DNA from: a virus
Taxonomy: Duplodnaviria > Heunggongvirae > Uroviricota > Caudoviricetes
DNA length: 13,458 nt
Strand: one strand, 5' to 3'
Virus record (IMG/VR): IMGVR_UViG_2667527608_000004
Below are positions 1,595 through 2,929 of the stretch, one piece after another; position 1 is the first letter of the stretch, and every line of letters begins with the position of its first letter. Under the pieces are notes generated by a model. It was given only the letters and a program-made list of their open reading frames with translations, did not search any database and was not told where the DNA came from. The position numbers and the translations under genes are program-made.

Positions 1595-2193
1595 GCAACC
1601 TCACTTCTGCTGTTTCGCAGTTTTTTAAGTTTCTGTTGATACTCCGCCTTGATGGCCCTGCACTCTTCGACAGTCCAGCGATAGCGGTTATGGTTTGATT
1701 CGATTTCCTCTACTGCTTCCTGCCCGATGCGGCTAATCAGTTCGACGCGATACGGAACGAGATTTCCGCTTTTGTGCTGGTTGCACACCACGCATTGCTT
1801 GTGAATATTGCGTTCATCAAATCGGAGTTGAGGTGCCGCAGCAGTTGTCCGGTAATGTCCGGCATCCCACTGAGCAGACGTGAGTGTTCCGCACGAGATA
1901 CATGGTAAGTCGCGGTCTCTTTCTCTGATGAAGGCGTTTACGGCTTGTTGGGCTTGTTTAATCCAGTAACTGCGGGGCTTTAAGGCGAGTTTTCGAATCT
2001 TAAGTTTATCTTTCTGTTTCTGATCCTCTCGTCGTCGTTTCTTCTCTGCTGCTTTTTCCGCTTTTTCGCGTTCTTTACTTCGTCGTTCGAGTGCTATCTT
2101 GGTTCCACAAATCTCATTACACCAATATTGATTTTGATATTTTGGTATAAACCATTCATTGCAACATTTACATTTCCTTCGATAGATTCGCAT
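1591..2193 (-). CDS. ninG: NinG/Rap recombination-associated protein (start revised to ATG at 2193)
   Basis: Cys-rich N-terminus (CKCCNEWF...WCNEICGTK) and a C-terminal region matching lambda NinG as recalled ([37 protein letters not shown]...). The ATG at 2193 is preceded by AAGGAG 6 nt upstream; the 20-codon extension in the ORF track (to 2253) has no ribosome-binding site. Confidence 0.88.
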
Positions 2194-2734
2194 AAGTGCT
2201 CCTTTCGTTGCCGGAAAAATCACCGTAATACTTATCTCGGGCTTCTTCAGCAACTAGTACCGCTAACTCCAGATCATCAAAGCATCCGAAGTGTTTACTC
2301 TTGCCATGGAATCCTAGCCTAACATTCCATTTTTTCTGTCGTTTGTGCCAAGTAACCCCTCTGCAACCTGATTTGCTATTCTTTCGGATCCTTATATTTC
2401 TTGAATTTTCTATTGGCAGGCATTCTCTTAAATTTTCTGGCCTATTGTCGGTCCTAATTCCATTAACGTGGTCAATTTGACCAGCAGGCCAACGATTATG
2501 AGTTATGTAAAAAACTAAGACGTGAGTTTTATATCTACGCCCATCTATCATGATCATTGAATAACCGTTGGAATCAAAAGTTCCAGCAACACTATTTAAT
2601 GCTATCCTTCCCTGAGTGGGAACTTTCCATCTAAATACCCCGGTAGATTTATCGAAACTTAGTAACTCAAATATCCTTTTAACAGTTAAATCTTCTCTTT
2701 TACGGTTACATCGTCTTCGCGCTGGTTTAGCCAT
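2168..2734 (-). CDS. HNH homing endonuclease (NUMOD4-like N-terminus, HNH_3 core, C-terminal AP2-like DNA-binding domain)
   Basis: FRWK...G...NGY N-terminal motif; HNH core [18 protein letters not shown]; C-terminal [33 protein letters not shown] typical of AP2 domains in phage HNH endonucleases. Start chosen at ATG 2734 (MAKPARRR...), preceded by GGAGGAAG; the ORF-track start at 2815 lacks a ribosome-binding site. The 3' end overlaps the ninG start by 26 nt. Confidence 0.85.
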
Positions 2735-2929
2735 CGCCTTCTTCCTCCGTAATGGTTTTCTGAATTTGGCCACCTGAACAGAGCTCACCAAAGCTATGGA
2801 TGTCGGTATTTCCACAATACCAAGATGGCGAAAATAACTGCATGATAAGCCTCAGGGAAAAGGGAAGACACTACCCCCGATAATTCAGAAACAAATCGAA
2901 ATACATGAACTAAAGAAAAAAATCACAAC

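Follow-up and report, generated by a model that had tools for sequence, protein, structure and literature searches.

The free-standing homing endonucleases of the T-even phages, SegF, SegG and MobE, act by intronless homing, spreading by break-induced gene conversion with co-conversion of flanking sequence. In Aeromonas phage Aeh1, an insertion of MobE in nrdA has reportedly given rise to a "genes in pieces" ribonucleotide reductase (Friedrich et al. 2007). We set beside these systems a minus-strand locus of IMG/VR record IMGVR_UViG_2667527608_000004 (Caudoviricetes; 13,458 nt, the whole of which we call the window), which covers a lambdoid-prophage nin region. Here a gene for a predicted HNH endonuclease and a substitute 5' end for ninG together form a cassette lodged inside the ninG coding sequence. 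Our best reading, to which we assign a probability of roughly two in three, is that this is a free-standing homing endonuclease gene (HEG) cassette that would spread by gene conversion; homing activity itself we infer from population-genetic and sequence evidence. Throughout, ninG alleles that bear the cassette are referred to as HEG+, and those that do not as HEG-less or empty.

A three-way alignment of the window, the enterotoxigenic Escherichia coli (ETEC) prophage ETEC1718 and phage lambda sets both junctions of the cassette to the base. In this alignment 64 nt of lambda-type ninG (codons 10-31) are swapped for the 596-nt cassette, position 2706 being the last base on the left, and 2109 the first on the right, that is still held in common with lambda (Table 1). 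To the left, a native island (2706-2747) is identical or nearly identical to lambda and to 80 HEG-less alleles, and a 42-46-nt piece of it used as a BLAST query matches at the NinG/NinF boundary in hundreds of E. coli genomes. The island now serves as the translation-initiation region and first nine codons of the HNH gene: from the internal ATG at 2734, 9 2/3 codons (29 nt, ATGGCTAAACCAGCGCGAAGACGATGTAA) are nucleotide-identical to the start of lambda ninG, a match which, on this alignment, cannot be due to chance. To the right, native ninG sequence resumes at the fourth cysteine codon, TGTGGAACC (codon 29, TGT, window 2109). Base composition also marks the cassette as foreign, with a GC content of 37.6% over its whole length (39% in the HNH body, 29% in the re-coded ninG segment) against 48.5% in native ninG and 56% in the native island.

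Most of this arrangement had been anticipated by an earlier, sequence-only reading of the same stretch. It noted that MAKPARRRC, the N-terminus of the HNH protein, resembles the native start of lambda NinG, which the 29-nt identity bears out; it had the HNH gene ending 26 nt inside ninG, as the open reading frame (ORF) coordinates confirm, and placed the ninG ribosome-binding site within HNH coding sequence, which is where the AAGGAG motif lies. The same 26-nt overlap is annotated in RefSeq and GenBank relatives. Its proposal that a free-standing HNH gene invaded ninG agrees with our alignments against lambda, the 80 HEG-less alleles and about 60 HEG-bearing ones, as do its further suggestions that ninG N-terminal codons were re-used and that the HNH gene overlaps a re-started ninG; the point of entry, however, lies after 9 2/3 codons and not at the ninG start. 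It was likewise right that the MRIYRR leader of ninG differs from the native one, but the difference is not confined to the leader, since codons 1-28 in their entirety, carrying three of the four N-terminal cysteines, lie on foreign DNA.

The extent that it gave to the HNH gene needs correcting. The maximal ORF, counted from a GTG, spans 2168-2815 (-), while the real start, judging from relatives, is the ATG at 2734, giving a protein of 188 aa, because the GTG-extended frame does not exist in relatives that have intact ninF, in another frame, upstream. RefSeq also annotates 188 aa, and a reading of the sequence gives no alternative in-frame start ahead of codon 60. With no start codon of its own, and fused in frame to the ATG and nine codons of ninG, the HNH gene inherits the ninG ribosome-binding site and, where ninF is intact, also the ATGGCTAA overlap with the ninF stop. 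It is chimeric at its other end too, where the C-terminal ~10 aa cross the new ninG Shine-Dalgarno sequence and start codon in a different frame.

Several lines of evidence bear on how such a gene is housed. No Rfam family, group I and group II introns included, is found at gathering threshold anywhere in the window, and an intron-borne HNH gene was rejected on that basis. The HNH ORF forms a cistron of its own, which overlaps ninG in a different frame, and its closest non-identical homologs (44-46% identity) occur as solitary genes, each within an unrelated phage module. The lack of an intron or RNA family, together with these solitary homologs, indicates a free-standing gene of HEG type that is chimeric at both ends. 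As read from the alignments, the layout is an unusual chimera: an HEG within a coding gene, with neither intron nor intein, that uses the start codon of its host and carries a substitute host N-terminus.

Table 1. Coordinates of the HNH cassette, the ninG gene that it occupies and the surrounding features of the window.
Feature	Position	Strand	Description
Cassette-specific foreign DNA	2110-2705	-	596 nt: HNH body (codon 10 third base to stop), ninG Shine-Dalgarno, re-coded ninG codons 1-28
Native lambda-type island	2706-2747	-	Last ~13 nt of ninF, ninG ribosome-binding region, ninG ATG and 9 2/3 codons
HNH endonuclease ORF	2168-2734	-	188 aa; ATG 2734-2732, TAA 2170-2168
HNH 3' / ninG 5' overlap	2168-2193	-	26 nt, different frames; from ORF coordinates
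Shine-Dalgarno AAGGAG of re-started ninG	2199-2204	-	5 nt upstream of ATG 2193, inside HNH ORF; direct reading
Re-coded ninG 5' segment	2110-2193	-	Codons 1-28, 29% GC; three of four N-terminal NinG cysteines
ninG (rap)	1591-2193	-	Intact, 200 aa; codon 29 (window 2109) to stop is native lambda-type sequence
Ser/Thr phosphatase gene	929-1594		
Q	309-932		
AT-rich insertion	~2748-5528		~2.8 kb, 34% GC, replaces middle of ninF; from lambda/ETEC1718 alignment and composition
590-aa ORF of AT-rich insertion	3298-5070	+	No Pfam match; matches only PHROG 9230 (unknown function)
ninF remnant	5529-5577	-	GTG 5577 and first ~16 codons; truncated by AT-rich insertion; from lambda/ETEC1718 ninF alignment
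ninE	5574-5756		From nin-region gene order
ninB	5753-6163		From nin-region gene order

Because the 3' end of the cassette supplies a strong Shine-Dalgarno sequence, an ATG and 28 codons, ninG stays intact despite the 64 nt displaced. The re-started gene opens with MRIYRR at the ATG at 2193, and its re-coded codons, a diverged homolog of the displaced NinG N-terminus, end in ...WCNEI directly ahead of native sequence. All four N-terminal cysteines are kept in the chimeric protein, the first pair as CxxC where lambda has CxxxxC. In BLASTP the chimera shares 89% identity with lambda NinG, and the differences cluster in residues 1-29; it matches Pfam NinG (PF05766) with 280.8 bits over profile positions 5-192 of 193, and alignment with lambda NinG shows that the DAGHY...CVVCN motif is retained. 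Intact ninG genes are found in 55 of the 60 complete HEG+ loci. The nearest non-identical phage NinG N-termini are only 55-67% identical to the re-coded segment (tblastn against phages), and a 40-aa query made to find its source lineage returned only E. coli NinG fragments.

The re-coded segment is strictly linked to the HNH gene, the two occurring in 538 and 537 E. coli genomes with one apparent exception. That exception, a candidate allele with re-coded ninG and no HNH gene (H170), was rejected, since an IS2 insertion splits its ninG and the HNH gene is still upstream; in locus L006 (E. coli Z1323CEC0014, 2569-3797) the IS2 element lies within the re-coded segment just downstream of the HNH gene. 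A separate variant of NinG, of 203 aa (612 nt), is found in HEG+ loci L002, L003, L031-L033, L035, L037 and L046; it and the 200-aa form cease to align in register about 60 nt past the right junction, implying a 9-nt insertion. The occurrence of both forms indicates that the cassette has been combined with different variants of the ninG body.

The cassette encodes a free-standing His-Me finger nuclease of HNH_3 type with a predicted C-terminal AP2-like DNA-binding domain. The protein matches Pfam HNH_3 (PF13392) with 42.7 bits (E 4e-11, cutoff 24.8) and PHROG 99, "HNH endonuclease", with E 1e-71. The sequence-only reading had proposed NUMOD4, HNH_3 and AP2 domains: of these, HNH_3 is matched above its cutoff, AP2 below its own, and NUMOD4 was not detected by Pfam search even at E<=10. 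An alignment of the window protein with 33 homologs at 33-45% identity (34 sequences) has D88, H89, E100-N101-L102-R103-E104, N110 and N113 invariant and N97 at least 90% conserved, and the window protein has all of these residues. Relative to the homologs it is longer by ~12-15 aa at the N-terminus, comprising the ninG-derived MAKPARRRC and a few further residues, and by ~10 aa at the C-terminus, where the new Shine-Dalgarno sequence and the first eight ninG codons are read in another frame. An AlphaFold 2 (AF2) model built from the homolog alignment has a mean predicted local distance difference test score (pLDDT) of 88, and its low-confidence parts are precisely these two extra tails.

In structural searches with the model, the best Protein Data Bank (PDB) fold match is the homing endonuclease I-HmuI (probability 0.98, 15% sequence identity), and residues ~123-173 superpose on plant AP2/ERF domains (1gcc, 1.4 Å over 51 columns; 7et4, 1.1 Å over 48 columns, probability 1.0). 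HNH_3, I-HmuI and AP2-bearing proteins belong to one homing-endonuclease group, which typically joins the nuclease to modular DNA-binding domains, AP2 among them, whereas NinG has a His-Me finger group to itself (Jablonska et al. 2017, PMC5714182). Of 62 loci compared, 61 have an intact HNH ORF, and the changes in it number approximately 12 synonymous and 11 non-synonymous.

A search of IMG/VR gave 60 loci carrying the HNH gene at >=98% identity. Among the loci compared, the same junctions and the same cassette length occur in 59, which represent 16 haplotypes, and nucleotide diversity is ~0.005 inside the cassette and rises to ~0.1 in the ninG flank with distance from it. Upstream, the cassette is found in two contexts, bordered either by the AT-rich insertion (~42 loci) or by intact, variable ninF (~21 loci). 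The 80 HEG-less lambda-type alleles hardly vary in the displaced region or around it, including those whose upstream gene is not ninF. Defining immediate-flank haplotypes by the 16 nt left of the ATG and by single-nucleotide polymorphisms (SNPs) at +8, +32 and +56 nt right of the junction, at least four such haplotypes occur both with and without the cassette, and all four gametes are seen with the SNPs 8, 32 and 56 nt from the right junction. Exchange points lie within 8 nt of the right edge and ~30 nt of the left edge, in several backgrounds. Together, the shared flank haplotypes and the four gametes indicate that the cassette has passed from one background to another, with end-points lying close against its edges; such exchange is the pattern of break-induced conversion, and is compatible also with ordinary recombination. 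The four-gamete patterns at 8-56 nt would likewise fit a nuclease-dependent, super-Mendelian transmission in crosses.

Among complete E. coli genomes, the lambda-type ninG core is present in 2438 places in 1169 genomes and the cassette in 569 places in 538 genomes, which corresponds to occupancy of ~23% of the ~2438 lambda-type ninG copies. Genomes with lambda-type ninG have a median of two copies (up to eight), and the cassette is usually present about once per genome. Carriers comprise Stx1 phages, prophages of O157, O111 and O145 strains, an ETEC prophage and Salmonella prophages; Salmonella Infantis has the cassette in the same ninF-HNH-ninG layout, and Salmonella Rubislaw is represented by a protein record. 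Two Stx1 phages, AU6Stx1 and SH2026Stx1, are its only carriers among sequenced phages. The window itself matches E. coli chromosomes at 100% over 2100-2900, for example that of strain E2865. In E. coli O157:H7 EDL933 (L153, 5475-6215) the prophage that holds the HEG+ ninG is degraded, and upstream of the HNH gene it has no nin genes but a truncated IS30 transposase and a gene with a bamE domain.

The mechanism we propose would operate during lytic growth, when the nin operon would be transcribed and the HNH protein translated from the captured ninG start. The enzyme would then nick or cut empty lambda-type ninG alleles, whether of a co-infecting phage or of another prophage in the same cell, in or near the conserved 5' ~95 nt of ninG that the cassette replaces, with ATGGCTAAACC...TGTGGAACC as the candidate stretch. 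Repair of the break from the HEG+ allele would draw, to the left, on the homology that ninF and the first nine ninG codons provide and, to the right, on that of ninG starting at codon 29, and one repair step would copy in the nuclease, an immune target and a working ninG 5' end. The HEG+ allele would be immune because its target has been replaced (a 6-nt indel and ~40% nucleotide divergence). The layout is, by analogy, that of intronless homing, with a solitary nuclease, a diverged and presumably uncleavable copy of the target beside it, and a conserved empty site elsewhere.

The cassette probably came from an unsampled AT-rich phage in which the HNH gene lay just upstream of, and overlapped, that phage's own ninG. 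The right crossover was probably homologous, and the left joint, in ninG codon 10, a one-off illegitimate join, lacking any start codon of the HNH gene's own, that created the fusion. A scan of GTDB representative genomes for the HNH protein gave only a 39%-identical match in Planctomycetota, and the nearest homologs, P0006 and P0005, have contexts unrelated to ninG. More tentatively, and with the odds somewhat against it, the cassette may embody a distinct solution to residence in a coding gene, in which an HEG hijacks host initiation signals and carries a portable, cleavage-resistant re-start segment, a single conversion installs nuclease, immunity and host repair together, and the left junction records the original break or illegitimate join.

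The nuclease may, on another account, have played no part in any of this. The cassette would then be a passive mosaic module that arose once by illegitimate recombination and spread only by general or Red-mediated homologous recombination, its enzyme perhaps inactive or decaying. We judge this unlikely, while recognising that a good deal speaks for it and thereby weighs on homing. Lambdoid genomes are highly mosaic, the conservation of the cassette flanks (the ninF 3' end, and ninG from codon 29) suffices for ordinary recombination, and such recombination could alone spread a neutral module and yield four gametes. The frequency of the cassette in E. coli is inflated by clonal sampling of Shiga toxin-producing E. 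coli (STEC). As genomes hold more ninG copies than cassettes, empty and HEG+ alleles seem to be co-resident in many STEC chromosomes, a situation that a nin region silent in lysogens would produce, as would an inactive enzyme. A few HNH alleles among L008-L064 are changed at invariant or near-invariant positions (P83T, N97T, N101S), and that of L064 is frameshifted by a 1-nt deletion; early decay of the nuclease in some lineages is a possible explanation. The domain evidence has its own weak points, in that the AP2 match (22.2 bits, E 2e-4) is under the cutoff of 33.3 and Foldseek matches I-HmuI at an E-value no better than 9e-3. A search of 5.8 billion proteins for a donor lineage of the HNH gene returned nothing between 46% and 98% identity. 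Against passive spread stand the near-universal integrity of the ORF and the conserved catalytic residues of the window copy, exchange points so close to the cassette edges as to be less likely from random crossovers, and the strict linkage of the presumably resistant re-coded segment to the nuclease, which is the classical intronless-homing layout of T4 SegF, SegG and MobE.

Two further roles for the enzyme deserve mention. The HNH gene could be kept as a weapon of competition, because cutting the ninG region of rivals lowers their yield (marker exclusion), with spread as a by-product. T-even free-standing HEGs cause localised marker exclusion, and the cassette is enriched in poly-lysogenic STEC genomes with many competing lambdoid prophages; the conserved target in rivals and the immune re-coded copy in cis, on which homing rests, speak for exclusion too. 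Sequence data fit the two equally. Since ninG is non-essential in lambda, where it falls inside the nin5 deletion, a repaired break would cost a rival little unless cleavage cuts burst size, and we consider exclusion, which is a variant of the homing mechanism, improbable as the reason for the gene's maintenance. Packaging HNH proteins also exist in lambdoid-like phages, so that the gene might be a non-mobile accessory with a native N-terminus, acting with the terminase as HK97 gp74 does or as a partner of NinG. That NinG is itself a His-Me finger nuclease (PMC5714182) could be taken in its favour. Yet the gene sits in the nin region, far from the terminase; its family (HNH_3 with AP2, the I-HmuI group) is unlike the packaging type; it is present or absent at one exact site, with occupancy of under a quarter; and its first 29 nt, identical to native ninG, are absent from all 33 homologs. 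Location, family, presence/absence pattern and alignment thus contradict an accessory role, for which we see hardly any prospect. We retain homing by a free-standing endonuclease as the preferred reading.

The AT-rich insertion that adjoins the cassette in the window had been suggested to share a boundary with the HNH gene. This does not hold up: the insertion and the cassette are, as the alignments read, separate events, since they are kept apart by ~41 nt of native ninF-3'/ninG-5' sequence (2706-~2747) and since the HNH gene is found without the insertion in ETEC1718, in ~20 IMG/VR loci and in a Salmonella prophage, all with the order ninF-HNH-ninG. The converse, the insertion's proximal arm (next to the HNH gene) without the HNH gene, was found in none of 40 evenly spaced rows of the match ranking. 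The most economical order of events would be HNH gene first, followed by insertion into ninF. The insertion is composite, because its proximal arm, found in 519 genomes, is commoner than its 590-aa ORF, which 252 of 5426 complete E. coli genomes carry, as do Stx1 phages AU6Stx1 and SH2026Stx1; the cassette, by comparison, is in 538 genomes. Within the insertion, window positions 2930-2982 form a perfect hexanucleotide tandem repeat on the plus strand, (AAATAG) x 8.8. The SH2026Stx1 match over this repeat is ~60 nt longer (1573 vs 1510 nt, in two BLAST pieces), suggesting that the copy number varies. At the far end, a 65-aa ORF at 5422-5619 (-) joins a frame overlapping ninE, the first 16 ninF codons and 34 insert-derived codons, and is probably a by-product of the insertion and not a gene.

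Downstream, ninH is absent from the window, where the ninG stop directly overlaps the start of the Ser/Thr phosphatase gene (1591-1594), whereas in lambda, ETEC1718 and the Stx1 phages ninH follows ninG. A promoter scan of 2000-3400 gave no promoter-like site, and a terminator scan of the same interval gave one weak terminator-like hairpin at 2862-2878 (-), within the AT-rich insertion; these scans have no bearing on the cassette.

Hundreds of genomes already have the gene annotated as "HNH endonuclease", and both its family and the concept of intronless homing are known; a full-text literature search found no description of the ninG-HNH element. If our reading is correct, lambdoid temperate phages, including Shiga-toxin phages and the prophages of STEC and Salmonella, join the hosts of actively homing free-standing endonucleases, and one piece of lambdoid mosaicism acquires a concrete, break-driven mechanism. 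It would also show how an HEG can occupy a coding gene through capture of its start and provision of a substitute N-terminus. Lambda, 434, 21 and the HK phages are natural empty-site recipients in which the candidate target is perfectly conserved, and the availability of such lambda-type recipients makes homing directly and easily testable in the lambda system. The enzyme could, in addition, serve as a new site-specific nuclease or nickase. Should it prove inactive, the locus would be no more than an HNH gene, already annotated, whose evolution can be neatly traced.

Compared with its nearest described counterparts, the locus combines familiar parts in a different arrangement. Its ninG is full-length and, from codon 29, lambda-type at the nucleotide level, differing from lambda NinG/Rap in the diverged, 29% GC version of codons 1-28 and in the CxxC spacing noted above. 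The HNH_3-AP2 endonucleases of T5-like and T7-like phages resemble the HNH protein at 41-46% identity over ~80% of its length with the same domain order, and are likewise solitary genes, located in replication modules; they differ in having short termini of their own, in being unfused to any neighbouring gene and in having no association with ninG. I-HmuI of Bacillus phage SPO1 (PDB 1U3E) is the best fold match and belongs to the same Pfam HNH_3 motif group, yet is an intron-encoded nicking enzyme with NUMOD and helix-turn-helix modules in place of AP2.

The T-even enzymes SegF, SegG and MobE are alike in genetic layout: a solitary nuclease gene lies next to or overlaps its target gene, its presence is polymorphic at one site among related phages, and the HEG+ genome has a diverged, presumably uncleavable target segment beside the HEG. 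Those enzymes, however, are of GIY-YIG or another HNH type and are encoded between genes from start codons of their own, whereas the cassette places its HEG inside the target ORF, uses the target's ATG and nine codons, and brings a replacement 5' segment. The closest parallel to residence within a gene is MobE in nrdA of Aeh1, likewise a free-standing HNH HEG that occupies a coding gene without the help of an intron or intein, and with host function retained. There, reportedly, the host protein is made as two polypeptides, which come together again; in the cassette described here only nine codons are severed, these now belong to the nuclease, and NinG is completed by an N-terminus that the cassette itself carries.

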